Origin: a virus
IMG/VR virus record: IMGVR_UViG_3300010287_000003
Length of the DNA stretch: 31,111 nucleotides
Direction: 5' to 3' (one strand)
Positions 12,759 through 31,111 of this stretch are shown here, piece by piece. Position 1 is the stretch's first letter. Every line of letters starts with the position of its first letter. The notes under the pieces are model-generated. The model was not told the DNA's origin. It ran no database searches and was given only the letters and a program-made list of their open reading frames with translations. Both the position numbers and the translations under genes were made by a program.

Positions 12759-12759
12759 C

Positions 12760-16767: not shown

Positions 16768-18954
16768 TTAGGCTTCGTCTGGGTCGTCGGGCTGGAGCAC
16801 GATCAGCAGCCCGGTAAGCGAATTCAGCGCGCCGCGGGCGCACACCTGCGCCTTGTCGATGCGCAGCGCCAGTGCTTCGGCGTCCTTGTCGGAGAGCTTC
16901 CCGGCGAGGTACATGCTGGCTTGGGTGACACGTGTGGCGCGAGATGCGCTGTTGATCAGGCGGTCCAGCTCGACCACTGTGCGCTGGTAGAGGCGCTGGA
17001 CGGCGGCCGGCGGCTCGTTATCCGCCTCGTCGGGTAGCGCGGCGAGCAGCTTGGCGTAGACGTCGCGCCCGGCGTCGGTCAGGACGTAGCCGGTGCACCA
17101 CTGGCTGCCCGATGACCACTTGTTGACCGGGGCGATCCAGCCCTCGCGGATGGCGAGCTTGGCGGCAGGGCTGGTGTCAGTGTAGTCGGCGCCGTCCCAG
17201 GCGGCCGCGAGCAGCGACTCGGAGTTGGGGCGCAGCTCGTGGAGCAGGTGCAGCAGCGGCACATGCTGATCGGCGGGGATGACGGCGAGCGGATCGGGCG
17301 GGGCAACGCGCTTGACTACGCCCGGCTGTGGACGCGCGAGCTTGCCCGCGCCGATCAGCAGGTTCAGAGCGCGGTGGAAGCGGTCGTTTTGCAGACCGCT
17401 TTTCTGGCGGAGCGTTTCGAGTAGCGTGGCTTCGTCTTCCAGCAGGTCGAGCAGGCGATCGGCGTCAAGGGCGGTTTGCGTGGGCGGGAGCGACTTTTCC
17501 CAGTCTTCGGCGTCAGCTTCGTGCTCGTCCGGCTCGTCCTCGTAGTCGCCGGTGCAGTCGTCCGCCAGCTCATCATCCGGCGTCGCTTCGGCTTCGGCCT
17601 CGGTCTGCTGGCGGCGGGCGTCGTCTTCGGCCATGCTCTGCTGCCACTCTTCGCTGCCTTCGGGGATCTCTTCGCGTTCATCCGGATCGAGCACGTCGAG
17701 CAGGCGCTCGCCTTCAGGGACTTCGCGCCCGGCGGGCTTCTTAATCCACACCGAGAGCGGCGAGAGGGTGAAGCGCTCCAGCTCGCCCGCTTCGCACAGG
17801 GCGTCGATCGCGGCGTTGAGCACGTCCTCATTCATGAGGGTGTGTGAGCGGAGCCAGGCGATCTTGATGGATGAGAGCGTCGGGAAGTCGCGCTGGTGTT
17901 GCGCCACGACGCGGCGCAGCAAATTCACTGCCTCTTCGTCGGCGAACGGCTTGGCTTTGGTAGGACCGGCCGGCAGGTAGAGGTCACGGAGACGCCGCAC
18001 GCGCTGCTCGCTGACGAGGGTTTCCAGCGCGCGCCGCAGGGCTTCCAGCCCTGCCTTATCGTCAAGGCCGATATCCAGCAGCTCGCGGATTTGTGCGGTG
18101 GTGAGAGGCTTCTGGAGCAGGTCCAGGATGCGCGCCTGCAACTCGGTTCCGCAATTCACTCGGAAGAAGTCGCGGCCTTCGACGAGCGTCAGCGGGTCCG
18201 CTTGCTCGGTGCCATACAACCGGTCGTGGAGCGCGTAAGCGTCGAATTCGATTTTGGCCTGGCCGTCCCAGACGCCTGCCGTGACCAGCTTGCGGGCGAC
18301 ATCCACCGCGCGGTGTTCGGCACCATCGTCGCTGCGCCCCAGGATAACAATCGCGTCGCGGTCGAACTTGGCGTTTAACTCCGCTTCGACGCGGGCGCGG
18401 GCTGCTTCAACGCGAGCCTCGGAGTTGACGTTCTGCGTGTAGGTTTCGCCGCCGCGCTGAAACAGGCGCGTCTCGGGCATCTGATAACCGTTATCAGATA
18501 GCTCGCGGCGGATCTTAGACACAAGGGGCTGAGACACCATGCAGCGGCGGGCGATTTCATGATCGGACCACTGGCACCACTCGTCGTCCCCGAGCAGCAT
18601 GAGGACGGCACGGCGCTTGTCCTCGTTGCTGCGCCGGACGCCGTGGCTCGCGTTGGCCTTGACCGCGGCGAGGATTGCGTCACGCTTGGAGCCGGGATGG
18701 ACCGTCGCGTTGATCGCGGTGCGCTGGAGCCGTTTCGCGGCGCGGATGCGGTGCCAGCCGTCGCCGATCCAGTACCACTCGCCGTCGTAGAACAGTTCTA
18801 CATCGGGGAGCTGCGTTCCGGCGGCCATCGCGTTAGCGTAGTCTTCGATCGCGCTCTCGTCGAACACGGCGCGCGCCTGGGTGTCTTCGTCCTCGCGGAT
18901 GCGATCCAGCGGGACCATCTTCGTTTGAACTTCCTCGTCGAACAGGGTGGTCAT
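16768..18954 (-). CDS. Large ParB/Srx-domain protein with HTH and several winged-helix-like modules
   Basis: 728 aa, AGGAG RBS. N-terminus (VPLDRIREDEDTQARAV ... WYWIGDGWHRIRAAKRL ... GSKRDAILAAVKANASHG) fits the ParB N-terminal fold, followed by HEIARRCMVSQPLVSKIRR (HTH). Also has an acidic linker and repeated wH-like segments. Confidence 0.7.
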   Translation of the reverse strand: MTTLFDEEVQTKMVPLDRIREDEDTQARAVFDESAIEDYANAMAAGTQLPDVELFYDGEWYWIGDGWHRIRAAKRLQRTAINATVHPGSKRDAILAAVKANASHGVRRSNEDKRRAVLMLLGDDEWCQWSDHEIARRCMVSQPLVSKIRRELSDNGYQMPETRLFQRGGETYTQNVNSEARVEAARARVEAELNAKFDRDAIVILGRSDDGAEHRAVDVARKLVTAGVWDGQAKIEFDAYALHDRLYGTEQADPLTLVEGRDFFRVNCGTELQARILDLLQKPLTTAQIRELLDIGLDDKAGLEALRRALETLVSEQRVRRLRDLYLPAGPTKAKPFADEEAVNLLRRVVAQHQRDFPTLSSIKIAWLRSHTLMNEDVLNAAIDALCEAGELERFTLSPLSVWIKKPAGREVPEGERLLDVLDPDEREEIPEGSEEWQQSMAEDDARRQQTEAEAEATPDDELADDCTGDYEDEPDEHEADAEDWEKSLPPTQTALDADRLLDLLEDEATLLETLRQKSGLQNDRFHRALNLLIGAGKLARPQPGVVKRVAPPDPLAVIPADQHVPLLHLLHELRPNSESLLAAAWDGADYTDTSPAAKLAIREGWIAPVNKWSSGSQWCTGYVLTDAGRDVYAKLLAALPDEADNEPPAAVQRLYQRTVVELDRLINSASRATRVTQASMYLAGKLSDKDAEALALRIDKAQVCARGALNSLTGLLIVLQPDDPDEA
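18479..18499 (-). repeat. 21-bp palindrome copy 4, inside the 728-aa ParB-like gene (encodes SDNGYQ on the reverse strand)
   Basis: The + strand reads ATCTGATAACCGTTATCAGAT, so the central base is G on the sense (reverse) strand. In frame with start 18954. Confidence 0.97.
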
Positions 18955-18966
18955 GCCTAAAAACTC

Positions 18967-19125
18967 CTAGTAAATCTGGCCGCAGATTGCGACGCCAGCG
19001 AACAGCACAATGAAGGGCCAGAGGCAGCCGAGCCATTTCCGAAAGCTGCCCTGAACGCGGACGCGGCCGCCGGCGATCAGCATCATCGGCTGGCGGGCTG
19101 CTGGATCTTCGGGTAGATTCTTCAT
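18967..19125 (-). CDS. Small membrane protein (52 aa; alternative start 19140)
   Basis: MKNLPEDPAARQPMMLIAGGRVRVQGSFRKWLGCLWPFIVLFAGVAICGQIY has a C-terminal TM segment. AAAGGAAG lies upstream of ATG 19125. The rest of the longer track ORF is Arg/Pro-rich and unlikely. Confidence 0.4.
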   Translation of the reverse strand: MKNLPEDPAARQPMMLIAGGRVRVQGSFRKWLGCLWPFIVLFAGVAICGQIY

Positions 19126-19190
19126 CGGGCTTCCTTTCATGGTGGCGCGGGCGTGTTTGCGGCACGCCCGCGCGCTGCGCTGTGAAGGGG

Positions 19191-19559
19191 CTAGCTGTTG
19201 CCGGGGCGGGCCAGACGAGGTTCCGCCCTGGTGCTTTCTACGAGGCTCGTGAGAGCAGCGTTCGTTTCGTGCGCTGCGCGGGCGGCTGTTGCCCACAGAT
19301 CCCACACGGCGGCGATGTTGGGGCTGCGCGTGACCGCCGCATAGTCCGTCAGGAACTCTTTTTCGACGATGACCAGGTCCTCGGGCCGGGCGTAGTAGTA
19401 CGTGTTCCAGGCGATTTCGACACGGATGTAGGTCGGGCCGACAGCGTCCACGACGCCGAGCCGTCCGGCGGGGAGCGTCGCGTCGGGGCGGTTGCGGTTC
19501 TGCAGGTCCTTCTTTGGGGCGACCAGGTCGCCGACTTCGATGCAGTCCATTGTCCTCAT
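19191..19559 (-). CDS. Hypothetical protein
   Basis: 122-aa ORF in the leftward operon with normal amino-acid composition and no recognised motif. Confidence 0.55.
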   Translation of the reverse strand: MRTMDCIEVGDLVAPKKDLQNRNRPDATLPAGRLGVVDAVGPTYIRVEIAWNTYYYARPEDLVIVEKEFLTDYAAVTRSPNIAAVWDLWATAARAAHETNAALTSLVESTRAEPRLARPGNS

Positions 19560-19562
19560 TCC

Positions 19563-20351
19563 TTAAACCTGGGCCGGGGCGGGCGCGGGTAAAACTTCGA
19601 TGGCGGCGACGACGTCTTCGAGGCTGACGCCTTTCGGCAGGAGCGCGGCGTGAATGCGAACGCCAGTCACTTCGAGCGTTTCCGGCTCCGGCTCAGACTG
19701 CGAGCGGAACGGGTAGAAGGGGCGGCCGATGACAACTTTCAGATCGTCCGACGTGGGCAGACCGAGCCGACGACGGTAGTAATCCTCGTTGTGTTGCAGT
19801 CGGCTGTACTCACGCCGCAGGTCGGCGAGTTCGCTCCGCGTCTTTGAGAGCGCATCTTTCGCCTCTTCGAGCTGCCGGAGCAGCGAGTTTTCGTACTCGT
19901 CACGACCGGTGCAGATGCTGGCGTAGCGCTGCGCCTCGGCGCGCGTCTCGCCGATGATGCGGGCCTGGCTTTCGCGCAGATCTTCGGACACCTTCAGTTT
20001 GCGCGTCAGCTCGCCGATGCGCTGGCGCTGGCGCCACCAGCTCCGCAGGGCGACGGAGCGCAGACGAGCCGCCGTCTCGGGATTGCGGCGCAGAAGCCGG
20101 TATTGCCGGTAGGCTTCGCGGTAGGCAGCGCGGATGCTTTTGCTGCTGCTGCCGACGGGCGTGGACTGGAGATGCAGTAGCGGGAAGATCACAACCCAGC
20201 GGCCACCCCAGTCGGAGTGGATGCGCATGTGCAGCAGCGTGTTTCCGCTGGGATCGATCCAGGCGGTTTCTTGCAGGTCCTTGTCGCCGATCTTGGAAAC
20301 GCGAAGATTGCGTGTGTTCGGCCTGAAGATGTTGGAGTTCTTCTCAGACAT
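19563..20351 (-). CDS. Hypothetical protein with central coiled-coil, first gene of the leftward operon
   Basis: 262 aa, AGGAG RBS. Lies downstream of a strong leftward promoter. No HTH recognised. Confidence 0.6.
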   Translation of the reverse strand: MSEKNSNIFRPNTRNLRVSKIGDKDLQETAWIDPSGNTLLHMRIHSDWGGRWVVIFPLLHLQSTPVGSSSKSIRAAYREAYRQYRLLRRNPETAARLRSVALRSWWRQRQRIGELTRKLKVSEDLRESQARIIGETRAEAQRYASICTGRDEYENSLLRQLEEAKDALSKTRSELADLRREYSRLQHNEDYYRRRLGLPTSDDLKVVIGRPFYPFRSQSEPEPETLEVTGVRIHAALLPKGVSLEDVVAAIEVLPAPAPAQV

Positions 20352-20476
20352 AATTGGCTCCTATTGGTTCTATACGGTCTCAATGGTATATCCATTCTGA
20401 ATTTCGTGCTTGGGGATGGCGCTCCTTTCGCGTGGCGGGGCTTGTGTCTGCCGCGTCATTCAGACTACTTGTAATC

Positions 20477-20505
20477 ATGATAAAAGAAGTCTCAATGAAA
20501 GTCAA
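20477..20505 (-). promoter_or_regulatory. Leftward early promoter (TTGACT - 17 nt - TATCAT on the reverse strand)
   Basis: The reverse complement of 20461-20510 reads agttgTTGACTttcattgagacttctttTATCATgatt. The spacer contains the repeated motif CATTGAGAC. Confidence 0.6.
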
Positions 20506-20525
20506 CAACTAGTCTCTATCGTATG

Positions 20526-20555
20526 TTGACAAAAGAGAACCGGGTGCTTTATCCT
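20526..20555 (+). promoter_or_regulatory. Rightward early promoter (TTGACA - 17/18 nt - TTATCC/TATCCT)
   Basis: TTGACA at 20526-20531 and a -10-like hexamer at 20549-20555. Lies about 40 nt upstream of the XRE-gene start and back-to-back with the leftward promoter. Confidence 0.55.
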
Positions 20556-20591
20556 AGAAACGAAACGGCCACTTCTAGCAAGGTGGGATGT

Positions 20592-20900
20592 ATGGACCAA
20601 TCGAGAACGGCGAGCGAACCAAAACGCAGGTTAAGACTGAGGAATCGCTTCGCGGAACTCCTGGCCGCGCACCAGCGGACGACACGCCGTAACTGGAAAT
20701 ATGAAGAGATTTCCAAAGTGACAGGAGTCTCTCCCGGTACGTTGTCTTCTTACGCGCAGAACAAGGTCACTCGATATGACGAAGTGACCGTTGTGCCGCT
20801 GATGGAGTTTTTTGGCCTCACCGACGTCGGCAAGCTTTTGGTGCTCGAAGAAGAAGAGGTCGAAGACGAGGGGCAGCAAAAAGCCGTCGCGGCGGGATAG
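20592..20900 (+). CDS. XRE-family HTH transcriptional regulator (Cro/CI-like)
   Basis: ATG 20592 with AAGGTGGGA upstream; the track ORF start 20523 would include the promoter. NWKYEEISKVTGVSPGTLSSYAQNKVTRYD is a typical HTH_XRE; the C-terminal tail is acidic. Confidence 0.75.
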   Translation: MDQSRTASEPKRRLRLRNRFAELLAAHQRTTRRNWKYEEISKVTGVSPGTLSSYAQNKVTRYDEVTVVPLMEFFGLTDVGKLLVLEEEEVEDEGQQKAVAAG

Positions 20901-20995
20901 CACCACGACGGCGAGCGCGAGCGCGGTGAAGTCGCGTCGCGCCTGAAATTGAGTATAGTAATTTTTGTGCCTCAATGCAGCGTTAAGGATTTAGC

Positions 20996-21559
20996 ATGTT
21001 TCGCGCAATTCTCATAGTCGTTGTCCTGTTCGGCCTGGCGATCCCGGCGGCGAGCGGGCAAGAAGAACAACGGTTCGAGGGGGCAGGGATGGACGTGTGG
21101 GTGCCGGGTGGCTGGCAGGTGACGGAGACTGACGACGACGTCGTGCTGACCAATCTGCCGACTGACAAGCCGGACTGGCTGGCGACGATCGAGCCGGGGC
21201 GGGTGACCGCGCACCTGGCGCCGCTGAGCGCGCTGGTCGAGAGCGGAATCCTGACGGACGATCCGGCGTTTCTCGCGGGCACTTACACCGGTGTCGCGCT
21301 GACGACGAACGCGTTTATGAGCGCGTTCTCGCCGACGCCGTCCGCCGAGCCGCTGACGTACACGATCAGCGAGCTGGTGGAAGAGGACGGCGTGTGGTCG
21401 GTGGAGATGACGATCGGCGGCGGAAAACCGGTCGATCTACTGATCGTCGTAGTGGAAGACGCCTTTGTGCTTACCGCTAGCGCGCCGCGTGGGGAACTGG
21501 GCCAGTGGCGTGACGTGCTGAACGAGATCGCGGCAAAGGCCGTCGCTGCGACCGCCTGA
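20996..21559 (+). CDS. Secreted hypothetical protein (signal peptide)
   Basis: The N-terminus of this 187-aa ORF, MFRAILIVVVLFGLAIPAASGQ, looks like a signal peptide. Function unknown. Confidence 0.6.
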   Translation: MFRAILIVVVLFGLAIPAASGQEEQRFEGAGMDVWVPGGWQVTETDDDVVLTNLPTDKPDWLATIEPGRVTAHLAPLSALVESGILTDDPAFLAGTYTGVALTTNAFMSAFSPTPSAEPLTYTISELVEEDGVWSVEMTIGGGKPVDLLIVVVEDAFVLTASAPRGELGQWRDVLNEIAAKAVAATA

Positions 21560-21635
21560 TCTTTAACAACTGAGGACCTCGCCGAGCCTGGGCAGTAGGG
21601 GGCTGGCAGAGGGAGAGTTTTGGACAAAGACGCAG

Positions 21636-21665
21636 AGGTCCCGGGTTCAAGTCCCGGCACCCCGA
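21636..21665 (+). other. tRNA 3'-end fragment (T-arm + acceptor 3' strand + discriminator A); probable attP core
   Basis: CCGGG-TTCAAGT-CCCGG followed by CACCCCG-A. No complementary 5' acceptor strand (CGGGGTG) or anticodon arm lies upstream. About 40 nt from the integrase gene end. Confidence 0.65.
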
Positions 21666-21704
21666 CTAACACTCTCCCCTTTTTGTACCCCTTTTGGCAC
21701 TCTA

Positions 21705-22676
21705 CTACCCTGCGCCAAGCTGATGCTTAGCAGCAGGGTTTTGTTTTATCTGCTGCGGCTGCCAGTAGTGCAGATCGAGCAGCGCCCCGGCCTGGCGTAG
21801 ATCCGTTTCGTCCACGTCCTGGTAGTACTCCAGCGTCGTCGTGATGCTGGTGTGTCCCAGGTAGTGCTGAGTGATACGGGGAGCGACATGCTCGCGGGCA
21901 AACTTCAACCCCACACGATGACGCAAGCTGTGCGCGCCCAGGCGGCGCGAAAGCCCGGCTGTTTTGCACAGACGCCGGATGACCTCGCTGATCGCACGTG
22001 GCGAGAGGCGGGCAGAGCCACGCCACGGTGTGAAGACGTAATCCGTCGGCTTGTCGGGCCGGGCTTCGAGCCATGCGCGGATGGCGTCGGCTGTCTCCGC
22101 GTTGAAGTAGATGCGGCGGCGCCGGTTCCCCTTGCCGTTCACCAGCGCAGAACAGTTGTCCAATTCGAGGTCGCGGATTCGCAGACCTGCCGCTTCGCCG
22201 GCACGACAGCCCGAATTGGCGAGCAGGAGCACGAGCGCCCGATCGCGCGGCTTGAAGCGCGACGCGGCGAGCAACATCTCCAGCTCGTCATCCGTGGCGG
22301 CCTTGCCCTGACCAAGCGGCAGCGCAGGGCGGCGATTGACGAGGTAACCAGCGGGCGAGGCGTCGATAAGGCCAGAGCGCTCGCACCAGCGAAAGAAGGA
22401 CTTAATCATCTTGACATTTTTATAGATGGTCGCCGGAGCAAGGGGGGCCTGGACCGCCGGGCGGCGGGTGTGCGTGGCGTACTTGGTTGTGCGCGTTCGC
22501 ATCGCCGTCACGTAGGCGTCGATGTCTTCGGGCCGGACAAGGGAGATCGGTCGCTGCGGCCCGATCGCGGCGACGAACTCGGTGAGGAAGCGGCGATACG
22601 TCTGCTTCGTCTGGTCAGCGCGATCGACCAGCAGATAGCGGCGTAACGCCTCTTCGAGCGTGATGGGTTCGGTCAT
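21705..22676 (-). CDS. int: Tyrosine recombinase / phage integrase
   Basis: 323 aa with SGCRAGEAAGLRIRDL, HSLRHRVG and LGHTSITTTLEYY (the R..HxxR..Y catalytic pattern). Adjacent to the tRNA fragment. Confidence 0.9.
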   Translation of the reverse strand: MTEPITLEEALRRYLLVDRADQTKQTYRRFLTEFVAAIGPQRPISLVRPEDIDAYVTAMRTRTTKYATHTRRPAVQAPLAPATIYKNVKMIKSFFRWCERSGLIDASPAGYLVNRRPALPLGQGKAATDDELEMLLAASRFKPRDRALVLLLANSGCRAGEAAGLRIRDLELDNCSALVNGKGNRRRRIYFNAETADAIRAWLEARPDKPTDYVFTPWRGSARLSPRAISEVIRRLCKTAGLSRRLGAHSLRHRVGLKFAREHVAPRITQHYLGHTSITTTLEYYQDVDETDLRQAGALLDLHYWQPQQIKQNPAAKHQLGAG

Positions 22677-22826
22677 GAGTACACCTTACGAATGAAGCGA
22701 AATTCCCAAAAAACAACGTCAGCGGGATAGCTCGCCGCTGGCTGACCGACGCAGGTAGGGCTGCGCGCGGCACATGCAGTATAGCATGATTCGCCCCGCA
22801 CACAGCCCACGACAGGACTTAGACAA

Positions 22827-23972
22827 ATGGACAGTGAGAAACCTGTAGAAATCAGGGATGAAGGCACGACGGATCGCTATTTCCACGTCATGTTGAACAT
22901 GGCGGACGACGACCTCGATCCATATGAATACCGTCTGCTGGGGCACTACCGGCGCGTGTGCGGGGCGCAGAATGTGCCATGCACCGAGGGGACGCGGAAG
23001 ACCGCCGAGCGGTGCAAGATGAGCGCCGGGAAGGTGTCGGAGACGCGCGCAGCGCTGGCAGCGGCAGGCTGGATTAAGCTGGCCGAAGACGGCAACCGGG
23101 TGATCGTGACGCTGATTGATCGCATGCCCGAAAATGTTGCCCGTTATAGCGCCGATAAGCGTTCACCTGATGAACGTTCACCACATGAACGTTCTGGGAA
23201 TCGCAAAAACGTTCACCGTATGAACGTTTCGTTCACCACACGAACAAAACGTTCACCACATGAACGCAAACGTTCACCTGGTGAACGGAAGAAAGAACTT
23301 ATTAAGAAACAACCATTCAAAGAGCCAGCAAAAACATCATCAAGCAGCGATCGGGGAGATCGGACAGGCGGCGAGCAGGTTGATGATGATGGCTTCATCA
23401 GAAACCAAGCCGAGCTGATCGGTTTGAGCCGTGAAAACTGCGAGAAGCTGCTCGCGGTGGGCGTGGAGCGCGCAACGGGGCTGCTGATCGCAGCGCGACG
23501 TAAGGCGAAGACGAACCCGGCGGGCCTGCTGCTCGCGATGCTGGGCAGCGAACAGCCGCCTTCAGCGGACGATCTGTCGCTGGTGCCGCTGGCGCTGGAG
23601 CTGGGGACGACGGAGCCGGATCGGCTGGATCGCGAGCAACGGGGGCGACAGCTTCGCCAGTTTGCCGCGCGCCAGAACGGTTCTGATCTGGCGGCGAGCA
23701 CGCCGGACCGGTCCGCGCAGGACGTGTGGCAGCAGGTGATCGGGCAACTGCGGGTGCAGCTTAACCGGGCGACGTTCGACACGTGGCTAGACGGCATGAC
23801 CGCGGAGCAGTTCGCCGATGGCGTGCTGACGGTCCGCGCTAAGCACGCGTACGGGGCGGACTGGTGCAAGAAGAATCTCCAGCCGCTGGTGGACCGGCTC
23901 GCGTCCACGGCGGCCGGGCAGGCGATCCGAGTGGTGTTCGAGGCTCCGGCGTGGATGGTCGCCAGGAGCTAA
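22827..23972 (+). CDS. Replication initiator (N-terminal wHTH, iteron-encoded linker, C-terminal DnaA-domain-I-like module)
   Basis: 381 aa. N-terminus YEYRLLGHYRRVCG ... KMSAGKVSETRAALAAAGWIKL (wHTH). The internal iteron array is translated in varying frames. C-terminus DVWQQVIGQLRVQLNRATFDTWL ... GADWCKKNL ... IRVVFEA resembles the DnaA N-terminal domain. Confidence 0.65.
   Translation: MDSEKPVEIRDEGTTDRYFHVMLNMADDDLDPYEYRLLGHYRRVCGAQNVPCTEGTRKTAERCKMSAGKVSETRAALAAAGWIKLAEDGNRVIVTLIDRMPENVARYSADKRSPDERSPHERSGNRKNVHRMNVSFTTRTKRSPHERKRSPGERKKELIKKQPFKEPAKTSSSSDRGDRTGGEQVDDDGFIRNQAELIGLSRENCEKLLAVGVERATGLLIAARRKAKTNPAGLLLAMLGSEQPPSADDLSLVPLALELGTTEPDRLDREQRGRQLRQFAARQNGSDLAASTPDRSAQDVWQQVIGQLRVQLNRATFDTWLDGMTAEQFADGVLTVRAKHAYGADWCKKNLQPLVDRLASTAAGQAIRVVFEAPAWMVARS
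23161..23286 (+). repeat. Six iterons GTTCACCNNNYGAAC (putative origin of replication), followed by an AT-rich tract 23287-23350
   Basis: Copies lie at 23161, 23176, 23211, 23231, 23251 and 23272 (15 nt each, GTTCA/TGAAC inverted arms). The downstream ggaagaaagaacttattaagaaacaaccattcaaagagccagcaaaaacatcat is strongly A/T-enriched. Confidence 0.7.
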
Positions 23973-24043
23973 AAAAACGGGGCCGGGCCGCACGGTCGCG
24001 GCGCCAGCCCCAGTGTGAAGATGCTTGAAGGAGAGGGTAGCAC

Positions 24044-24808
24044 ATGATCACTTTTGCGGCAATCAATGAGAAGGGCGGGTCGGGCCGCACGACAGCGTTT
24101 GTCAACCTAGCGGCGGGTCTCGCCGTGCGGGGGAAGCGGGTGTTGCTGATCGACACCGACGAGCAAGGTCACGCGACCATTGCCTACGGCTTTGAGAAGT
24201 TCGCGGGGCTGTACGACCTGATGGTGCGCGGCGCCAAGTGGTTTGACGTGGCGATTCCGGTGGACGCCGAGCGATACGGCAGCCGGGGCCTGAGCAATCT
24301 CTACCTGGTCGGCTCGAACGTTGAGACACGGACCATCGCGCTCAACATTGACGACAAGTGGCGGCTCGCCAAGCGCCTCGCCGAAGTTTCGGATATGTTC
24401 GACGTGTGCCTGATCGACACGTCCCCCACTCCATCCGCGCTGCACAGCACGGTGTTCCTGGCGGCAGATTACATCATCTGTCCGACAGAGCTTGAGGTCC
24501 TCGGGCTGGACGGCTTGCACGAGTCGATTAAGCGGGTACAGGCGGTGCGGGTGCTGGAAGGCAAGGACCTGCGCGTCGCGGGAATTGTGCCGAACAAGTG
24601 CCGCCTGACGACGCTTGAGCACAAAGAGAACCTGGCCCGGCTGCAAGAGAGTTTCGGCGCGGCGGTCTGGCCGCCGATCACGCTGAGCATTATCTGGCCC
24701 GAGGCGATGGCTTTCGGGCGCCCGGTGATCGTCCATGCGCCCGATCACGACGCGGCGTTTTCGGTGTGGGAAATGGTAGACCGCGTGGAGGCACTTTGCA
24801 ATGGCTAG
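24044..24808 (+). CDS. parA: ParA/Soj-family partition ATPase-like protein (Walker A Lys replaced by Arg)
   Basis: 254 aa with NEKGGSGRTT (deviant Walker A), VLLIDTDEQG and FDVCLIDTSP. GGAGAGGG RBS. Confidence 0.8.
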   Translation: MITFAAINEKGGSGRTTAFVNLAAGLAVRGKRVLLIDTDEQGHATIAYGFEKFAGLYDLMVRGAKWFDVAIPVDAERYGSRGLSNLYLVGSNVETRTIALNIDDKWRLAKRLAEVSDMFDVCLIDTSPTPSALHSTVFLAADYIICPTELEVLGLDGLHESIKRVQAVRVLEGKDLRVAGIVPNKCRLTTLEHKENLARLQESFGAAVWPPITLSIIWPEAMAFGRPVIVHAPDHDAAFSVWEMVDRVEALCNG

Positions 24809-26288
24809 TAGACGGCGGCAGGGAGATCGGATCGGACCGCTCGTAGGCGAGCGTGAGACGCCGTCGGACGCGGCGCAGCGGATCTATGGCACGGTGCGGC
24901 GCGTGAAGCTGGATGAAATCCGGATCGTGGACAGCGTTCAGGTGCGGGTAGACGGGCTGGACGAAGAGCGTGTTGAGCGCTACACGGAATTTCTGCTCGC
25001 CGGTGGCACCTTCAAAGATGCGATCGTGGTCTACCAGGATGGGCCGGACCTGATTCTCGCGGCAGGGTTCCACCGGTGTGAGGCGTACCGGCGCGCACTG
25101 GAGCGCTTTGAGCCGAGTGGGGATGCGCAAGCACTGGCGCCGTTGATGGCGGAAATTCGGACCGGCGGGCATGAGGCGGCGATCGAGTTCGCTGAAGAGG
25201 ACAATCTGGCGCACGGGTTGGAACTGTCGCCACGGGATAAAAGGTACATCCTGGAGCGCCGTTTCAAGCGCGGGCATGAGTGGGCGTCGTTGAGCAACCG
25301 AGCACTGGCAGCAAAGTTAGGCGTCTCTGACATGACGATCGGCCGCTGGCGGGCGGAGATCGAAGAGAAAACAGGTGCAACAAATGTTGCACGTGGGCGC
25401 GTCGGCAAGGATGGCAAGACCTACGATGTGAGCGGGCAGCAGATCGCGGCGGCACGCGAGGCGCTGGCGAGGCTGGCTCTGCCGCCGCTTGACAAGGACC
25501 AGCGCGAAGTAGTGCGGCGGTCCATCATCACCAGCATTGACTACATCAAGATGGCGCAGTACGGCTCCGGCTGTAAATACCGTCAGTACCTGCCCTATGC
25601 GCTCGCGGTGGAGTTGGAAGCCGACGAGCCGCGTGTGTCGCTGGTGAACTGGATGCGAGGCGAGCTGCCGAAGTGGCAGGAAGAGCAGGACGAGGCGCGC
25701 CGGACCGAGGAGCAGGCGGCACGCGCGCGCCTTAAGGAACATCTGCTGGCGGTGTTGCTGCGCGGGCCATTCGACCTGACGCAGATGATTGGATTGGACG
25801 GGCTTGCTGGCTTGACTCCGCGCGCGTGCTGGGATGTGGTCCATGATCTGATGCGCGAGGGGGCGATCCGGCGCGTGTCGGATGACGTGTATGAGCTGGT
25901 GCGCGCCGCCGAGCCGAGCGAAACTGAGCCGCTATCTGATAACGGTTATCAGATGGACGAGCCGGAGCCGGAAGCGGATTGGCTCGATGCGACGGTCAAG
26001 CGGGCGGCGGGAGTGGCCCTGCGGGATAATACGTCAATCGAATACGAGAGCGACGAGGCGATGGCGGCGAGGTTAACCGAGTTACTGCGCGTCGGCTCGC
26101 ATGTCTTGTGCGACCTGGAAGATGTGCTGGAGCAGACAGCACCGGTGCCGGAGTGGGTGTTGTCGAAGCTCGATGACTTGAGCAAATTGCTACATGGTCA
26201 TCCAGGCCAAGACGACGATATTTGGAATCCCGGGCTGAACAGCTTGCTGGCCGACCTGAACACGAGAAGCAGAAGGGAGCGGGAATGA
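24801..26288 (+). CDS. ParB/Srx-domain HTH protein (ParB-like partner of ParA)
   Basis: 495 aa; its start overlaps the parA stop. KLDEIRIVDSVQVR ... LILAAGFHRCEAYRRA (ParB N-domain-like), LAAKLGVSDMTIGRWR (HTH) and a wH-like segment. The acidic linker carries the palindrome. Confidence 0.7.
   Translation: MASRRRQGDRIGPLVGERETPSDAAQRIYGTVRRVKLDEIRIVDSVQVRVDGLDEERVERYTEFLLAGGTFKDAIVVYQDGPDLILAAGFHRCEAYRRALERFEPSGDAQALAPLMAEIRTGGHEAAIEFAEEDNLAHGLELSPRDKRYILERRFKRGHEWASLSNRALAAKLGVSDMTIGRWRAEIEEKTGATNVARGRVGKDGKTYDVSGQQIAAAREALARLALPPLDKDQREVVRRSIITSIDYIKMAQYGSGCKYRQYLPYALAVELEADEPRVSLVNWMRGELPKWQEEQDEARRTEEQAARARLKEHLLAVLLRGPFDLTQMIGLDGLAGLTPRACWDVVHDLMREGAIRRVSDDVYELVRAAEPSETEPLSDNGYQMDEPEPEADWLDATVKRAAGVALRDNTSIEYESDEAMAARLTELLRVGSHVLCDLEDVLEQTAPVPEWVLSKLDDLSKLLHGHPGQDDDIWNPGLNSLLADLNTRSRRERE
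25934..25954 (+). repeat. 21-bp palindrome copy 5, inside the 495-aa ParB-like gene (encodes SDNGYQ)
   Basis: Exact ATCTGATAACGGTTATCAGAT. TCT at 25935 is in frame with the 24801 start. Confidence 0.97.
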
Positions 26289-26545
26289 GCACGGTGAAGG
26301 TCACAATTCCGCTGAGGCAGACCGGAGTGGTCGCAGTCCGCCTGCAGGACGAGTGTAAAGAGCTGATCGAAACGCGCGTGCAAGAACTGTTCCGGGCGAT
26401 GTTCCCGCCAGGCAGCGACGGCCCACCGGAAGGCTTCAGCATCGGCGCGCTGTACGAGCAGGCGGCGTGCGAGGTGGCGCAGATAGAGGCTGAGATCCAG
26501 GCGGCGATCCAGCGCGACATGGATCAAGAGGTCGGTGAGGAGTGA
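26285..26545 (+). CDS. Hypothetical protein (86 aa)
   Basis: ATG 26285 overlaps the upstream stop (ATGA). The upstream part of the track ORF from 26222 overlaps the ParB-like gene. Confidence 0.5.
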   Translation: MSTVKVTIPLRQTGVVAVRLQDECKELIETRVQELFRAMFPPGSDGPPEGFSIGALYEQAACEVAQIEAEIQAAIQRDMDQEVGEE

Positions 26546-26727
26546 GCGGTCCATCATGCCCCTACTGCGGGGGGGAGAATGTATGCTACCAGGGCATTGA
26601 CGACGGCCTGGGGCCTTACGGCGACTGCATCGGGGATGTGTACATCTGCGAGGACTGCGATCTAGAGTTCGAGGGACACATCATCCCGTATGGTGCGCTG
26701 CTCGATGACGAGGACGGTGAGGAATGA
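26542..26727 (+). CDS. Small zinc-ribbon protein
   Basis: 61 aa with CPYCGG ... CEDCD (two CxxC pairs) and an acidic tail. GTGA overlap upstream and ATGA overlap downstream. Confidence 0.55.
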   Translation: MSGPSCPYCGGENVCYQGIDDGLGPYGDCIGDVYICEDCDLEFEGHIIPYGALLDDEDGEE

Positions 26728-27284
26728 GTGCAAAGCTGATCGCCAAAGGCTATCCGCCTGAGTGGGTGAGCGGCGAGATCCAGAGCGAAATCTATGAACG
26801 CGCAAACTGGCGCTGCGAGCACTGCGGCGAGGAGTTTCATGAGGGCACGACCATCGCCAAGACAGCGCGCAACGCGGATGGCAAGCCGCGCATCCTGACG
26901 GTGCACCACCTGGACGGCAACCCGGCGAACTGCGACTGGACGAACCTGCTCGCTTGCTGCCAGGTCTGCCACCTGCACATTCAAGCGGTTTGGAAGCCCG
27001 GCGGCGTGCTGCCCGCGCACTGGGAGCAGCCGCCGCGGTGGATCGCCGAACGCGAGCTGCCGTATAAGCCGAACGGCCAACTCTCACTGTGGCCGCGTAT
27101 GAGGTACACGTTCATCGGCGACGCGCTGACGGCTCCGCGCCTGGTGGGATTGCAGTGCGATCCGGTTCGCCGGCGCGATGGCCGCTGCGTGGTTAGCGTC
27201 AAGATGGCAACTGCGCTGGTGGTGGATGGCCTCGGTCGAAAGTACGTGGTGCCGAGGCGCCGTTTGAGGCTGAACGAACGATGA
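26724..27284 (+). CDS. HNH endonuclease
   Basis: 186 aa. WRCEHCGEEFHEG ... LTVHHLDGNPANCDWTNLLACCQVCHLHIQ is a typical HNH/zinc-finger motif. Confidence 0.8.
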   Translation: MSAKLIAKGYPPEWVSGEIQSEIYERANWRCEHCGEEFHEGTTIAKTARNADGKPRILTVHHLDGNPANCDWTNLLACCQVCHLHIQAVWKPGGVLPAHWEQPPRWIAERELPYKPNGQLSLWPRMRYTFIGDALTAPRLVGLQCDPVRRRDGRCVVSVKMATALVVDGLGRKYVVPRRRLRLNER

Positions 27285-27589
27285 CAACTGGTAAATACAA
27301 CGACTTGAACCGGGAACTGGAAAACGTGCAGCTTCTTCCGCGACCGCCGCTTGTGTTTCACAGAACAGAGCAGCTAGAGGACTTCGGCAGGCGCGTTAAG
27401 GCGGCGTTTCAGGCTTTCGGCGTTACTGCGGAAGATGTTATCTGCGCCGTGCGTTCTGCCGGGATCAGCTTTCTGAACTTACTCCGGGAGATCGAGCCGA
27501 CACCGGCGCCGCCCACACGCCGGAAGGCACACGGTCGGCTGCGGAGCCAGCGCGAGCTGCGCGACATTAGGAGACAGCGGGGCCTATGA
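27281..27589 (+). CDS. Hypothetical protein (102 aa, basic C-terminus)
   Basis: ORF with ATGA overlaps at both ends; no motif recognised. Confidence 0.5.
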   Translation: MTTGKYNDLNRELENVQLLPRPPLVFHRTEQLEDFGRRVKAAFQAFGVTAEDVICAVRSAGISFLNLLREIEPTPAPPTRRKAHGRLRSQRELRDIRRQRGL

Positions 27590-27831
27590 GCAAGCGGCGG
27601 CGACGGACGCGGGCGGATGATGTGTTCGACCTGATCTGCCGGATCGCGCAAGAGAACTGCGGCGCGACGCCGAACTCCCGCGTGATCGCGGACGCGCTCG
27701 GGCTGAGCCAGTCGCGGGTGCAGCAATTGCTCATGCGGCTGCAACTCGATCGACGGATCACGTACATCGACCGCTACACGTACCGGGTGGAGCGGTCGGT
27801 GTGGGAGCCGCCGCCCGATGCGAGAATTTAG
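27586..27831 (+). CDS. Small winged-helix DNA-binding protein (candidate late regulator)
   Basis: 81 aa. CGATPNSRVIADALGLSQSRVQQLLMRLQLDRRITYI resembles LexA/MarR-type wHTH. It is the last gene before the late-operon leader. Confidence 0.5.
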   Translation: MSKRRRRTRADDVFDLICRIAQENCGATPNSRVIADALGLSQSRVQQLLMRLQLDRRITYIDRYTYRVERSVWEPPPDARI

Positions 27832-27840
27832 GAAGTGTTG

Positions 27841-27873
27841 ATGTGAACATGCTCAGGAAAACAGTGTTCACAT
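27841..27873 (+). promoter_or_regulatory. Inverted repeat ATGTGAACA - 15 nt - TGTTCACAT just upstream of the candidate late promoter
   Basis: The 9-bp arms were checked by hand. It ends 7 nt before the -35 hexamer and lies in the most AT-rich part of the intergenic region. Confidence 0.5.
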
Positions 27874-27880
27874 AAGTAGA

Positions 27881-27909
27881 TTGTTTATGTTCTAAAGCTG
27901 TTCTATCAT
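27881..27909 (+). promoter_or_regulatory. Candidate promoter of the packaging/structural operon (TTGTTT - 17 nt - TATCAT)
   Basis: Hexamers and the 17-nt spacer were counted by hand. The -10 is the same TATCAT as in the leftward early promoter. Confidence 0.45.
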
Positions 27910-28255
27910 TGTAGCTGAAGCGAATTGACGAGCCGCCGCAGGGTCTCCTCAAATTCCGTGCAGTAAGTCAACGGCGGCTCACTCCCTACCCCCGAACGCG
28001 GGCGGTCAGCAGTGGCCGCCCAGGGGAAGATGCTGAATGGGGGTGCCGCCGAGATCCCCGAGGCAGGAAGGTGAAAGCGGTATAAGCCCTTCCAATCCTT
28101 CGGCCCGATCGGGGCCAGGATGCAAAAAAGGCGCGCTGGCAGGATGCGTCACCCAGGGGAGTAAAGGCCAGCATAAGGCTCCCCACTCGCCGGGCTGATC
28201 ACCGGGCGGGCAGCAGTGACCAGGCGCGGCCCCTGTGCAGGCCGCTTGAGGAACG

Positions 28256-28422: not shown

Positions 28423-28824
28423 ATGGCCCCGCGGCGGCAATGGACCGACGAAGAAAAGGCGGAGATTCTGGCCGCGCTGGACGCCAATCAAGGCAACGTC
28501 AAGCGGACGGCCCGGCAGTGTGGCGTGCCGATCAGCACGCTGCGCGGCTGGGTGAAAGGCCGGGGAACCAACGCCGGAGTGGCGAAGTTGCGCCCCGAAA
28601 AAAAGGGCGACCTGGCCGACGCGCTGGAAGAAATCGCCTGGAAGATTGTGGAGCTGCTGCCGGACAAGCTGGAGACGGCGGAAGTGCGGGAACTGGCAAC
28701 GCTGCTGGGCGTGTCGCTGGACAAGCTGCTGGTGCTGCGCGGCAAGGCGAACAACCGGACCGAGGTCAGCGGCGTGCAGATTTACGTCCCCGACAACGGG
28801 CGGCAGAGTAACCAGGTGGCATGA
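28423..28824 (+). CDS. terS: Terminase small subunit (HTH type)
   Basis: 133 aa. N-terminal HTH (QGNVKRTARQCGVPISTLRGWVKG). ATGA overlap with the large terminase. Confidence 0.7.
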   Translation: MAPRRQWTDEEKAEILAALDANQGNVKRTARQCGVPISTLRGWVKGRGTNAGVAKLRPEKKGDLADALEEIAWKIVELLPDKLETAEVRELATLLGVSLDKLLVLRGKANNRTEVSGVQIYVPDNGRQSNQVA

Positions 28825-30284
28825 CAGAGATCCGGCCCCAGGCGGCGCAGGAACGGTTCTTAGCGTCGCCGGCTGATATTGTGATTTACGGCGGGGCGGC
28901 TGGCGGCGGCAAGACGTGGTCACTGCTGGTCGAACCGGTCAGGCACATTAACAACCCGGCCTTTCGCGCGGTGCTGTTCCGGCGGGCATACCCGCAGATC
29001 ATCAATCCGGGTGGGATGCACGACGAAGCGCAGAAGCTGTACCCGCTGCTGGGCGGCTCGGCGACACAGCCATCCAGCGGGATTACGTGGACGTTTCCTA
29101 GCGGGGCGGTGGTGCGGTTCGCGCACCTGCAGCACGACAAGTCGGTCTACGACTGGCAGGGCGCGCAGATTCCGCTCATCGGCTTTGACGAGCTGACGCA
29201 CTTCAGCGAGGCGCAGTTCTGGTACATGCTGAGCCGCAACCGCTCATTATCCGGCGTTCGCCCATATGTTCGGGCGACGACGAACCCGGAGCCGAACTGG
29301 GTGGCGCGGCTGCTGGACTGGTGGATCGGCGAGGACGGCTACGCGATTCCGGAGCGGGGCGGGCATATCCGTTGGTTCGTGCGCTTCGGCGGCGAGCTGG
29401 TGTGGGCCGACAGTCCGGACGAGCTGACGAGCAAGTATCGCGGGGTCGAGCCAAAGAGCCTGACGTTTATCCCGGCGCGGCTCGAAGACAACCGCGTGCT
29501 GATGGACCGCGATCCCGGTTACCTGGCGAACCTGCTGGCGCTGCCGCTGGTCGAACGCGAGCGACTGCTCGGCGGTAACTGGAAGATCCAGCCGAGCGGC
29601 GGAAAGGTGTTCAACCGGGGCTGGTTCGAGATCGTGGCGCCCCAGGATGTGCCGCGCGGCGGCGTGGAGTGCCGGTTTTGGGACCTGGCCGCGACGGAGA
29701 AGAAGCTGAAAGGCAACGATCCGGACTTTTCGGCGGGCGTGAAGGTTCGCAAGGTAGAGGACCGGTACTACGTGATGGACTGCATCGCCGTCCAGGCCGG
29801 GCCGGCGGAAGTGGACCGGCTGATCATCAGCACGGCGCTACGCGACAGCGAGCAGGCGCGGCGCAGCGGGACGCGATACATGGTCCGCTGGGAGACGGAG
29901 CCGGGCAGCGCTGGGAAGCGTGAGACAAGCCGCCTGGTGAAGATGCTGGACGGCTACGACGCAAAGGGCGAGAGGCCGACCGGTGACAAGCTGACACGGG
30001 CGAAGGCGCTGAGCGCGCAAAGCGAACAAGGGTTCGTATTGCTGGTGGCCGGGGCGTGGAACGAGGGCTGGCTGACGCACATGCACCACCAACCGGACTG
30101 GGACCATGACGACATTATGGACGCGAGCAGCGGGGCGTATAACGCGCTGGTCAATCCGGGTGCGGAGTCGGGTTTTGTGGACTGGTACGGCGAGGCGCCG
30201 GAGCCGGTGGAGATCGAACCGGTGCGCGCAGACGACGAGATCGCCGATATGTTAGCGCGCTACGAGGCGGAGATAGATGGCTGA
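28821..30284 (+). CDS. terL: Terminase large subunit
   Basis: 487 aa. Walker A YGGAAGGGKTW, Walker B LIGFDELTHF and a C-terminal nuclease-like half. Followed by the portal gene. Confidence 0.9.
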   Translation: MTEIRPQAAQERFLASPADIVIYGGAAGGGKTWSLLVEPVRHINNPAFRAVLFRRAYPQIINPGGMHDEAQKLYPLLGGSATQPSSGITWTFPSGAVVRFAHLQHDKSVYDWQGAQIPLIGFDELTHFSEAQFWYMLSRNRSLSGVRPYVRATTNPEPNWVARLLDWWIGEDGYAIPERGGHIRWFVRFGGELVWADSPDELTSKYRGVEPKSLTFIPARLEDNRVLMDRDPGYLANLLALPLVERERLLGGNWKIQPSGGKVFNRGWFEIVAPQDVPRGGVECRFWDLAATEKKLKGNDPDFSAGVKVRKVEDRYYVMDCIAVQAGPAEVDRLIISTALRDSEQARRSGTRYMVRWETEPGSAGKRETSRLVKMLDGYDAKGERPTGDKLTRAKALSAQSEQGFVLLVAGAWNEGWLTHMHHQPDWDHDDIMDASSGAYNALVNPGAESGFVDWYGEAPEPVEIEPVRADDEIADMLARYEAEIDG

Positions 30285-31111
30285 GATTAAGAGCCTGTTC
30301 GACCGCGATGAATTTAAGCCGTTCAAGGCGCAGTGGGACAGGCGACAAACCGAACTGGCGCGCCGCTACGACTATTACACCGGCGACGTCTACAACCGGC
30401 ACAAGTACCGCTTTGGCTGGTGGCTGGGGCAGCGGCTGTATCGCGGCATTCGCCCGCTGTTTCTGCCGTTCGCGCGGGCGGTGGACGTGGACGCCGGGAT
30501 CATCCCCGGCGGGTGGGCGTTTAAGCAGGAAGCGCCGGACGCCTGGCGGACAGCCCGCAAACAACTGTTCGCCTGGTCGGAGTGGGCGACGCAAGGCGTG
30601 CTGTACGTGCATTACGGGGCGATCTTCGGCGTGAGCGGGCTGAAGGTGGCCGACCTGCGCGAAGAGAAGAAGGTCGTGATCGCGCCGGTCGATCCGCGCA
30701 AGTTCATGCTGGTGCGCGGGAGCGGCTACAGCCAAGCGCCGATGATGGCGATCACGATTGAGCAGCGCGAGGGGGCGGACGGCAAGCCTTACGAGTACGG
30801 CGAGGTGATCACGCCGGACAGCATCACGACCTTCCGCAACGGCCAGCCGGAAGGCTTCGAGAACCGTCCGGAGAGCTATCCGAACGCGCTGGGCGCGGTG
30901 CCCTATATCGAAGTGCGGCACATCGAAACGGGCGAGGACCTGGGCGAGTGCACGTTCCAGAAGCCGATGTTGATTTTGGACGAGCTGAACGAACTGGGTA
31001 GCTATCTGGCCGACATTATCAAGAAGCATGCCGAGCCGCAGACGGCCATCTCCGGCGCCGCCAAGAGCGACCTGAAGAAGGGCGATAACGTGTGGTTTCT
31101 GCCCGAGGGCG
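30277..31111 (+). CDS. Portal protein, N-terminal part (runs off the window end; continues at base 1..626 through the overlap)
   Basis: ATG 30277 overlaps the terL stop (30282-30284). The frame is open to the last base. It is not in the ORF track because it has no stop inside the window. Confidence 0.85.
   Translation, partial: MAEIKSLFDRDEFKPFKAQWDRRQTELARRYDYYTGDVYNRHKYRFGWWLGQRLYRGIRPLFLPFARAVDVDAGIIPGGWAFKQEAPDAWRTARKQLFAWSEWATQGVLYVHYGAIFGVSGLKVADLREEKKVVIAPVDPRKFMLVRGSGYSQAPMMAITIEQREGADGKPYEYGEVITPDSITTFRNGQPEGFENRPESYPNALGAVPYIEVRHIETGEDLGECTFQKPMLILDELNELGSYLADIIKKHAEPQTAISGAAKSDLKKGDNVWFLPEG

Follow-up and report, generated by a model that had tools for sequence, protein, structure and literature searches.

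The subject of this study is a partition-like cassette, a parA gene that overlaps the gene of a ParB-like protein, at positions 24044-26288 of a viral DNA stretch of 31,111 nucleotides (nt; IMG/VR record IMGVR_UViG_3300010287_000003), which is called the window in the following, at its whole length. Several described systems come close to it in part. In Bacillus subtilis, a parS site reportedly lies inside the coding sequence of spo0J, a finding attributed to Lin and Grossman in 1998. In the phage N15, the sites IR1-4 are spread over the genome. One account, which cites Ravin and Lane 1999, describes these as four separate single-palindrome centromere sites of the SopAB system (PMC7205306). 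The KorB/IncC system of plasmid RK2 has 12 dispersed OB operators, and KorB acts as a sliding clamp dependent on cytidine triphosphate (CTP) and as a long-range repressor (PMC11790492). The cluster A mycobacteriophages RedRock and Miko carry repA-parABS, which replaces the integration cassette, and form extrachromosomal prophages (PMC7157519). Further ParB relatives of mobile elements are the orphan prophage proteins that share the ParB-CTPase fold, portrayed in one report as divergent and not predictable in their use of nucleoside triphosphates (NTP; PMC12704722), BisD of ICEclc, presented as a ParB-like activator clamp (bioRxiv 10.1101/2024.09.16.613209), and ParT of SCP2, for which CTP-independent ParB-like segregation is reported (PMC12260392).

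Bases 1-123 of the window recur exactly as bases 30989-31111, which means that we are dealing with a circularised genome whose unit length is 30,988 base pairs (bp), and it is the complete ~31-kb genome of a temperate siphophage. It encodes two ParB-like proteins, one of 495 amino acids (aa), whose gene (24801-26288, + strand) follows parA (24044-24808, + strand), and an orphan paralogue of 728 aa (16768-18954, - strand). Directly 3' of the segment coding for the helix-turn-helix (HTH), the 495-aa gene contains the 18-bp palindrome GTGCAACAAATGTTGCAC, that is GTGCAACA-AA-TGTTGCAC (site B, 25375-25392), and the 728-aa gene contains at the same place a palindromic 21-mer (ATCTGATAACSGTTATCAGAT). 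We give about an even chance to the reading that these are two ParB-like protein/site pairs, the 495-aa protein with site B as its candidate parS and the 728-aa protein with the 21-mer, in a phage that has both an integrase and a rep/par module. Which protein belongs to which site is what we infer from position homology, covariation and co-occurrence.

Compared with the described systems, the cassette itself is of a known type, and by analogy it would be most like a chromosomal-type ParABS with parS in parB, beside rep and an origin. It shares with Spo0J a ParB-fold/HTH protein, a palindromic site in that protein's own gene, a small Soj-type ParA partner and more site copies on the replicon; here, however, the site stands at one fixed post-HTH codon position across a phage family while its sequence diversifies by lineage, box II is (D/A)G[FWY]HR and not GERRxRA, and the sites measure 18-25 bp and not 16 bp. 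The likeness to N15 consists in a temperate phage, a ParA/ParB-type pair and several isolated perfect palindromes instead of a tandem centromere array, but N15 is a linear plasmid without integrase on which SopB, the partner of ParA and a protein with a canonical ParB N-terminal domain, binds the sites, whereas the dispersed sites here appear to be owned by the second, orphan paralogue. As with KorB, which is also among the top structural matches, a ParB-family protein is found together with one palindrome that recurs unchanged at separate places of a mobile replicon. The partner of a ParA (IncC) is in that case KorB itself, which has CTP-binding boxes, whereas in the window the two roles seem to be split between paralogues, and the five identical 21-mers, three of them 16-20 nt before start codons, come with no promoter association shown. 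RedRock and Miko are likewise temperate siphophages with rep, parA and a parB-like gene in one block, the origin being thought to lie in or beside repA (PMC7157519), but they have arrays of 8-bp direct repeats flanking the genes in place of a single in-gene palindrome, and here the integration and par modules are both present and kept across relatives. The orphan ParB folds, BisD and ParT resemble the proteins of the window as ParB folds of mobile elements, often without LG(R/K)GL, with variable or absent NTP use and with regulatory rather than segregational roles; the portions of these reports that were available describe none with a site at a conserved codon of its own gene, nor paired separate modules in one small phage. 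What would be new is the site-in-gene rule together with the two separate modules in one 31-kb phage, and a limited literature search found no description of a site that is fixed at a conserved codon position and co-diversifies with the HTH.

According to this rule, genes of both ParB-like families contain a putative dyad site of ~18-25 bp, which adjoins the 3' side of the codons for the HTH recognition helix. For the family defined by the N-terminal part of the 728-aa protein, the post-HTH codons, which read LSDNGYQM in the window, were mapped onto 80 related loci (handles beginning with L), and 74 distinct relatives were compared with 518 control windows taken elsewhere in these genes. At the post-HTH window, 72% of the relatives had perfect arms of 7 nt or more as opposed to 1.7% of the controls, and 68% had arms of 8 nt or more as opposed to 0 of 518. 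The palindromes are specific to lineages, for example CATCTGCAAACGGTTTGCAGATG in L014, GTCTATCTGGGGAAATTCCCCAGATAGAC in L018, CATACTGCGAACAGTTCGCAGTATG in L037, CCTCACTGATACATTGTATCAGTGAGG in L080 and ATCTGGATGATCATCCAGAT in L002. Among the distinct odd-centred sites, every one keeps its symmetry at pairs 5-9, counted from the centre (37/37), with all four Watson-Crick types in use at pairs 5 and 6 and almost invariant pairs 7 and 8 (CTG...CAG); the architecture of the site is (A/C)(T/A)CTG-N11-CAG(A/T)(T/G), usually 21 nt in length.

Most relatives have a single copy of their palindrome in the up to 20 kb that were sampled. In the IMG/VR phages L199/L189 and L203, ATCTGGGGAAWTTCCCCAGAT (ATCTG-N11-CAGAT) occurs once in the ParB-like gene and once or twice elsewhere, and a multiplied in-gene unit is thus not unique to the window phage. 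A separate observation concerns L081 (IMGVR_UViG_3300025732_000002), which encodes a 728-type N-terminal relative and carries five dispersed copies of TGGCAACGTTGCCA (at 1228, 1751, 6091, 9498 and 17554), one of them ~500 nt upstream of the gene for this relative; a dispersed-site network may have arisen here independently.

The ParA-linked family follows the same pattern. Site B is present in a single copy in the window, and the ParA-linked orthologues have their own, differing palindrome at the homologous post-HTH place, namely CAGGTGGCCGGAATCCGGCCACCTG in L002, TCAACTGGCAAAAATTTGCCAGTTGA in L006, CAGGTGGCAAAAATTTGCCACCTG in L090-L092 and GACTGGTGCACATGCACCAGTC in L094, with a further one each in L095, L096, L097, L104 and L105. 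All of these are single-copy and even-centred with a ...GCAAATGC...-like core. Because every phage-type orthologue has such a palindrome of its own there, site B is assigned to the ParA-linked protein. The initial annotation had seen no other centromere-like repeat array next to the cassette, which is wrong, given site B within the 495-aa gene and six iterons in the adjacent rep gene. Both palindromes of the 495-aa gene, site B and a copy of the 21-mer, fall in regions that are disordered in the AlphaFold2 (AF2) model, where the protein can tolerate a constraint at the DNA level.

Two side observations link these palindromes to mosaicism. Between the window and its relative L003 (93-99% identical), the sole block without nucleotide homology is 25436-25917, with site B as its left and the 21-mer as its right boundary, and the orthologous protein P0004 is a composite whose junction falls exactly at the 21-mer. 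The palindromes hence coincide with junctions of mosaic recombination.

The 21-mer has exactly five copies in the window, starting at 3433, 5890, 15008, 18479 and 25934, where 0.00 would be expected (100 shuffles), and no further copy was found in the window at up to 3 mismatches. Copy 1 (3433-3453) is intergenic, in the order major head stop, GC-rich hairpin, 21-mer, ribosome-binding site (RBS) and ATG at 3473, and copy 2 (5890-5910) is placed alike, in the order major tail stop, GC-rich hairpin, 21-mer, RBS and the ATG of the tail assembly chaperone at 5931. Copy 3 (15008-15028) lies 16 nt upstream of the ATG at 15045 of a 427-aa gene that ends the late operon. Copy 4 (18479-18499) is that of the 728-aa gene, directly after the HTH and thus at the family-typical position, and copy 5 (25934-25954) falls into the 495-aa gene at residues 378-385, in a disordered C-terminal linker (pLDDT, the predicted local distance difference test score, is <50 for residues 369-416). 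That each ParB-like gene contains one copy, as first noticed, is correct, and both copies read LSDNGYQM, but they stand at non-homologous places, the one straight after the HTH and the other in the linker. Copies 1 and 5 are found at the same places in L003 and L090.

Since the 21-mer occupies the family position in the 728-aa gene and is intact in L001/L008, where no ParA was seen, we assign it to the 728-aa protein. L001/L008, a 38.9-kb IMG/VR contig, encodes a 324-aa homologue (49% identical) with the identical 21-mer at the same codons, intact at 21/21 positions against 74% nucleotide identity in the flanks and the sole copy in the contig; neither a ParA nor a 495-type gene was seen in the ~24 kb sampled. 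L091 has a truncated 728-type gene (58% identity) as well as a 21-mer in the linker of its 495-type gene.

The five 21-mers had originally been proposed as dispersed centromere sites of the parA/495-aa cassette, so that ParA would segregate an episomal prophage through them, as in N15. This proposal can draw on the copy within the parB-like gene, which is kept exactly in all orthologues with the same C-terminal module (L003, L090-L093), on the four separate single palindromes IR1-4 that form the N15 centromere (PMC7205306), and on the fact that all assemblies are unit-length circles of ~31 kb. Copy 5, however, sits in a variable linker, off the family site position, and the linker 21-mer is found only in the orthologues P0001-P0006, which have one common C-terminal module, and is lacking in P0008 and P0009 although these have N-terminal and HTH sequence in common with P0002, P0003 and P0005. 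It therefore goes with the C-terminal module and not with the HTH type of the ParA-linked protein. The different even-centred palindromes of the ParA-linked orthologues and the co-occurrence of the 21-mer with a 728-type homologue in a contig where no ParA was seen likewise speak against it. We consider this explanation unlikely; by position homology, the 21-mer belongs to the 728-aa paralogue and is probably not the centromere of the cassette. The alternative suggestion of KorB-type sites may still hold, for the 728-aa protein rather than for the ParA partner. In L093 (~4151-4205), a second ATCTG-N11-CAGAT unit with another inner sequence (ATCTGGCAACAGTTTACAGAT, coding for LSGNSLQI) follows 10 nt past the linker 21-mer; as a side observation, this suggests that the linker may gather sites of several specificities.

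Both intergenic gaps and disordered linkers tolerate 21 bp, so that position alone is no proof of a regulatory function. In bases 1-20000, a scan for promoters gave no sigma-70-like ones, the sigma-70 model possibly not being of the host's type, and a terminator scan remained at chance level; half-sites of the 21-mer and of site B (7-mers or longer) were not found elsewhere in the window beyond chance. The GC-rich hairpins at 3404-3431 (GGGCGCGG...CCGCGCCC) and 5864-5889 (CCGGGGCGC...GCGCCCCGG) end 2-4 nt before copies 1 and 2, have no T-tract after them, and may be terminators or elements of mRNA stability. An origin of the 21-mers from a mobile element like a miniature inverted-repeat transposable element was also considered, but there is no target-site duplication, the flanks share nothing past the 21 nt, and the fixed in-gene position would be left unexplained.

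It could further be argued that the palindromes work as hairpins, formed in RNA or in single-stranded DNA, in mRNA processing or stability, in termination control or as translational operators, and not as double-stranded sites of a protein. The arms covary freely and the unpaired centre measures 0-9 nt, as hairpins would allow; copies 1 and 2 come right after the GC-rich hairpins, copies 1-3 lie 16-20 nt before start codons, and five of the five 21-mers are within transcribed operons. On the other hand, the symmetry reaches a 0-1-nt centre in 29 of 53 palindromes, that is in more than half, which is of no use to a hairpin loop and favours a double-stranded DNA site. The sense strand shows no excess of G-T wobble (7 GT as opposed to 32 AC) and hence no tolerance of G-U pairs, and all 21 positions are identical in the five copies of the window and in L001, L003 and L090-L093, an invariance that includes distant relatives and points to sequence-specific recognition, not to selection for structure only. 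No Rfam family matched at gathering thresholds (0 matches), the palindrome has no T-tract behind it, and terminators were predicted at chance level. We reject a sense-strand RNA hairpin because of the wobble count together with the symmetry of the centre, and for the hairpin explanation as a whole we see very little probability. The palindromes are better described as putative dyad sites in double-stranded DNA that would be recognised by the product of the gene which contains them.

Recognition by the gene's own product is also suggested by covariation. The half-site sequence correlates with the sequence of the recognition helix (r = 0.34 and p = 0.0005 in a partial Mantel test that takes the remainder of the domain into account), although helix and site are <30 nt apart and the Mantel test ignores kinship, so that both would be inherited jointly anyway and the correlation could reflect physical linkage. 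The helix classes can be told apart by their sites, xKTV occurring with a GGAAATTCC centre and x(F/L)V with AACnGTT.

With respect to the proteins themselves, the ParA-linked 495-aa protein consists of an AGFHR box, an HTH at about residues 160-190, a winged-helix-like domain (291-366) and C-terminal helices. Its identification as a ParB-fold protein with an HTH is borne out by phrog_1033, 'ParB-like partition protein' (3e-13), and by structure prediction. The AF2 model, built on the 14-member family of the protein, has a pLDDT of 85-90 for residues 30-190, and its best PDB matches in Foldseek, with E values between 6e-6 and 8e-4, are ParB-CDP of Myxococcus xanthus and of B. subtilis, Noc, Caulobacter ParB, KorB and Spo0J. 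As modelled, the protein is a member of the ParB/Srx (ParB-CTPase fold) superfamily. The family is small, with 14 homologues in 5.8e9 proteins. In the Pfam ParB_N model (PF02195), the domain that the initial annotation had named could not be recovered, as the 495-aa protein gave no match even at E <= 10 and the 728-aa protein one of E = 0.15 (12.5 bits, cutoff 26.3); Pfam and NCBIfam scans of both ParB-like proteins returned nothing at threshold. The ParA-activating N-terminal motif LG(R/K)GL is absent from the 495-aa protein. A basic N-terminus, MASRR, is kept across the ParA-linked family with S3, R5 and R6 nearly invariant, and this peptide could be a contact to ParA.

The 728-aa protein, with its DGWHR box and HTH, also matches phrog_1033 (8e-19) and was rightly called a paralogue of the 495-aa protein, the two being 25% identical in BLASTP (E = 1e-8). 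The same can be said of the claim that their post-HTH segments are alignable, for the profiles of the two families align through this segment with 99.6% probability (E = 1e-23). Its N-terminal 175 aa belong to a large phage family of 194 protein matches, most of which have a precomputed PF02195 match, and of at least 570 stretches in IMG/VR viral contigs; the family profile finds PDB ParB at 1e-6 and sulfiredoxin at 1.5e-5. The long C-terminal part (538 aa) is of no assigned family, with no PDB match in a sequence search and no Pfam match, and the full-length protein as query found no relative among viral contigs, for which an alignment of the N-terminal domain was required.

Both proteins depart from CTP-dependent ParB clamps in box II, where the counterparts of the Spo0J sequence AGERRFRA in the alignment are AGFHRCEA (495 aa) and DGWHRIRA (728 aa), in agreement with the replacement of GERRxRA by (D/A)G(W/F)HR noticed at the outset. 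Neither protein has the canonical GERRxRA, one Arg and a His being kept; all but one of the 120 listed relatives of the 728-aa protein have DG[FWY]HR (119/120), and AG[FW]HR is found throughout the 495-aa family. The remnant (D/A)GxHR resembles the GCHR motif of sulfiredoxin. In the region of box III, EEDNLAHGLELSPRDK aligns to LLENLQREDLSPLEEA (canonical ENLQRxDL). According to one report, the nucleotide specificity of ParB-CTPase folds cannot be predicted from sequence (PMC12704722).

The ParA partner is a 254-aa protein of the ParA/Soj type, with matches to AAA_31 (6e-31), CbiA (7e-17) and phrog_164, 'ParA-like' (1e-35). As had been noted, its gene overlaps the start of the 495-aa gene, the parA stop running over the ATG by 8 nt (ATGGCTAG), and the two adjoining genes are co-oriented as is typical of a ParABS arrangement. 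Its Walker A motif, KGGSGRTT (24071-24094, residues 10-17), has Arg in place of the P-loop Lys and hence differs from the deviant form KGGxxK[ST]. This Lys-to-Arg change is common to the window, L003, L094 and L002, other relatives having KGGVGKT, and the NCBIfam model for a 'KGGVGR-motif variant' scores 34 bits on the ParA of the window (cutoff 90).

Upstream of parA lies rep (22827-23972, + strand), coding for a replication initiator with a DnaA_N-like C-terminus (PF11638, 8e-8; phrog_270, 5e-5). Six iterons (CGTTCACCnnnTGAACG, 23160-23286), which code for a repeated RSPHER-like peptide, are placed inside rep, and the origin thus lies within the gene in lambda-O-style. L004 and L006 likewise have related iterons within rep, and in L002 a palindrome of this kind is repeated (6817 and 6838). 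In view of this, one could imagine that the in-gene palindromes are origins or initiator sites as well, following the logic of lambda O and its ori, that the DG[FWY]HR proteins are origin-binding or nicking initiators, and that the extra 21-mers are secondary origins or replication-control sites. An in-gene site just past the DNA-binding domain does mirror lambda O and the rep gene of the window, and some relatives of the 728-type N-terminus occupy an initiator slot, the DG[FWY]HR ParB-like/HTH gene standing directly after a cro-like gene in L089 and directly before helicase and primase genes in L088; in L087-L089, the gene is part of the early operon, which suggests that the family as a whole may act in replication or early control. 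However, the rep gene of the window already has six iterons, origins usually comprise several iterons and an AT-rich stretch rather than a lone palindrome, the rule applies equally to the ParA-linked family, whose genes stand beside a separate rep gene, and the gaps between late genes would be odd places for origins. We therefore hold the origin explanation to be quite improbable.

On the other side of rep, a tyrosine integrase (21705-22676, - strand; PF00589, 2e-30) is followed by the attP core (21629-21667, + strand), which duplicates a tRNA-Pro gene at its 3' end and of which 38-39 nt are identical to the 3' ends of full tRNA-Pro genes in many metagenome contigs; the window has no complete tRNA gene. 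Such a core beside int makes the attP credible, and recombinase domain and tRNA-derived core together form an integration module. The initial annotation had pointed to the coexistence of the par cassette with integrase and attP, and this is confirmed by the order int(-)/rep/parA/parB-like in ~10 distinct relatives (L003, L004/L005, L006, L090, L093 and L094-L097), which are otherwise mosaic; the recurrence of this order means that the coexistence is a stable design and no accident of a single genome. A dual lifestyle, integrated and/or episomal, is plausible.

One could alternatively suppose that the phage is kept only by integration and that the ParA/ParB-like pair serves the lytic or establishment phase, in DNA positioning, exclusion or regulation. 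The attP core adjoining int, the Lys-to-Arg change in Walker A, the presence of relatives on contigs of metagenome-assembled genomes (MAG) of up to 440 kb, and the WD40 and SH3 genes that L095 has beyond int would fit. Yet none of the 42 metagenome loci with the core shows an attL/attR junction or pairs a full tRNA with int, the core search having yielded nothing other than tRNA-Pro genes of hosts and a pair of short fragments of the attP type (L136, L145), and rep-ori with parA/parB is the classic layout of plasmid maintenance (PMC7157519). Alternatively, in the opposite case, the recombinase would be a Cre/Xer-like dimer resolvase of a plasmid prophage. Cre of P1 provides a precedent for such a resolvase. 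The assemblies yielded unit-length circles only; of the contigs that carry the exact 495-aa protein, 4/7 fall in the 20-50 kb bin, including two of 31,043 and 31,129 bp from independent assemblies, and none is longer. Against a pure resolvase stands the tRNA-derived core. Taken as one proposal with its two versions, this seems improbable to us, and we return to two protein/site pairs in a phage with both modules.

The mechanism that we have in mind is as follows, where from the observed genes, folds, sites, conservation, covariation and synteny we infer who would bind what, with which NTP dependence and to what biological output. Each ParB-like dimer would bind its own in-gene palindrome via the HTH. 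The 495-aa protein would use site B as parS and, with ParA, position or segregate the replicating or episomal phage DNA. The orphan 728-aa protein would use the 21-mer, which in this lineage would have been multiplied to five sites, in its own gene, in three short gaps of the late operon and in the linker of the other ParB-like gene. These five would serve as genome-wide loading or binding points for the 728-aa protein in the manner of KorB, Noc or BisD, for the purpose of gene control or DNA organisation and possibly for a coupling of both systems.

A number of points weigh against this reading, apart from the physical linkage of helix and site. About 28% of the 728-type relatives are without palindrome, and most relatives have an odd centre but some an even one, with perfect arms of 7-14 nt and an unpaired centre of up to 9 nt, a variability that is unusual for a fixed dimer geometry. 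The six loci L098-L103 of Anaerolineae, in chromosomal context, have no in-gene palindrome, and L092 keeps the 21-mer in its 495-type linker with no 728-type gene visible on that short contig. Neither ParB-like protein reaches the Pfam ParB_N thresholds, and with Arg for the P-loop Lys the ParA of the window, judging from this residue, may not be a working ATPase. Lastly, the 728-type N-terminal relatives in early or replication modules, after a cro-like gene or before helicase and primase, may have a site that is an origin.

More broadly, and a little short of an even chance in our estimate, the phage ParB-fold/HTH family (the at least 570 stretches mentioned above) could consist of portable protein-plus-site modules, with a ~21-bp site (ATCTG-N11-CAGAT or CACTG-N11-CAGTG) in the disordered linker codons after the recognition helix. 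As the site is written next to the helix, protein specificity and site would co-diversify and travel together. Phages would stack such modules, here a ParA-coupled one and an orphan one with five sites, and extra copies seeded in gaps and linkers would make up a genome-wide binding network.

The remaining genome has the layout of a siphophage, with terminase (28423-30284), portal, major head (2431-3375; phrog_283, 'major head protein', 1e-39), major tail (5078-5842), and tape measure, distal tail and lysis-region genes that reach to 16328, the entire set being encoded on the + strand and with the portal gene between terminase and major head. A leftward operon (16392-20351, - strand), an HTH regulator (20523-20900) and a gene for a putative secreted protein (20996-21559, 187 aa, with a signal-peptide-like N-terminus) lead up to attP, and 3' of the 495-aa gene small genes are followed by an HNH gene (26724-27284). 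The G+C content is 62-68% except for one region of 55% at 20-21 kb; the 187-aa protein, which has no family match, is encoded in or beside this sole low-GC stretch (20001-21000), a location typical of a lysogenic-conversion or moron gene. The tape-measure gene (976 aa) holds four tandem copies of a 132-nt unit (44 aa) at 8241-8835. PADLOC showed no connection with defence systems.

The host probably belongs to the Chloroflexota/Anaerolineae, as relatives of the 495-aa protein in genome collections are nearly all found on MAG contigs binned there. Among these are L098-L103 (39-440 kb), with ParA, a ParB-like gene ~40% identical and a homologue of the HTH regulator of the window 2-3 kb upstream; no integrase is present within 10 kb, and the module may exist there in a domesticated or chromosomal form. 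Among GenBank phages, megablast of window positions 22000-28000 gave no match, and tblastn gave none for the 495-aa protein and only 3 metagenomic records for the N-terminal domain of the 728-aa protein, so that there is no cultured relative at hand.

If the reading of two protein/site pairs is true, the sites of hundreds of uncharacterised phage ParB-like proteins could be read from their genes, which would provide a panel of separate pairs for DNA labelling and synthetic partition, and the family would offer a natural system for the co-evolution of an HTH specificity and a target that are physically linked. It would further mean that temperate phages, probably of Chloroflexota, stably keep an integration module in addition to plasmid-type rep/par modules, which are alternatives in cluster A mycobacteriophages (PMC7157519), and that the two roles of KorB, as ParA partner and as binder of dispersed sites, are here divided between two paralogues.

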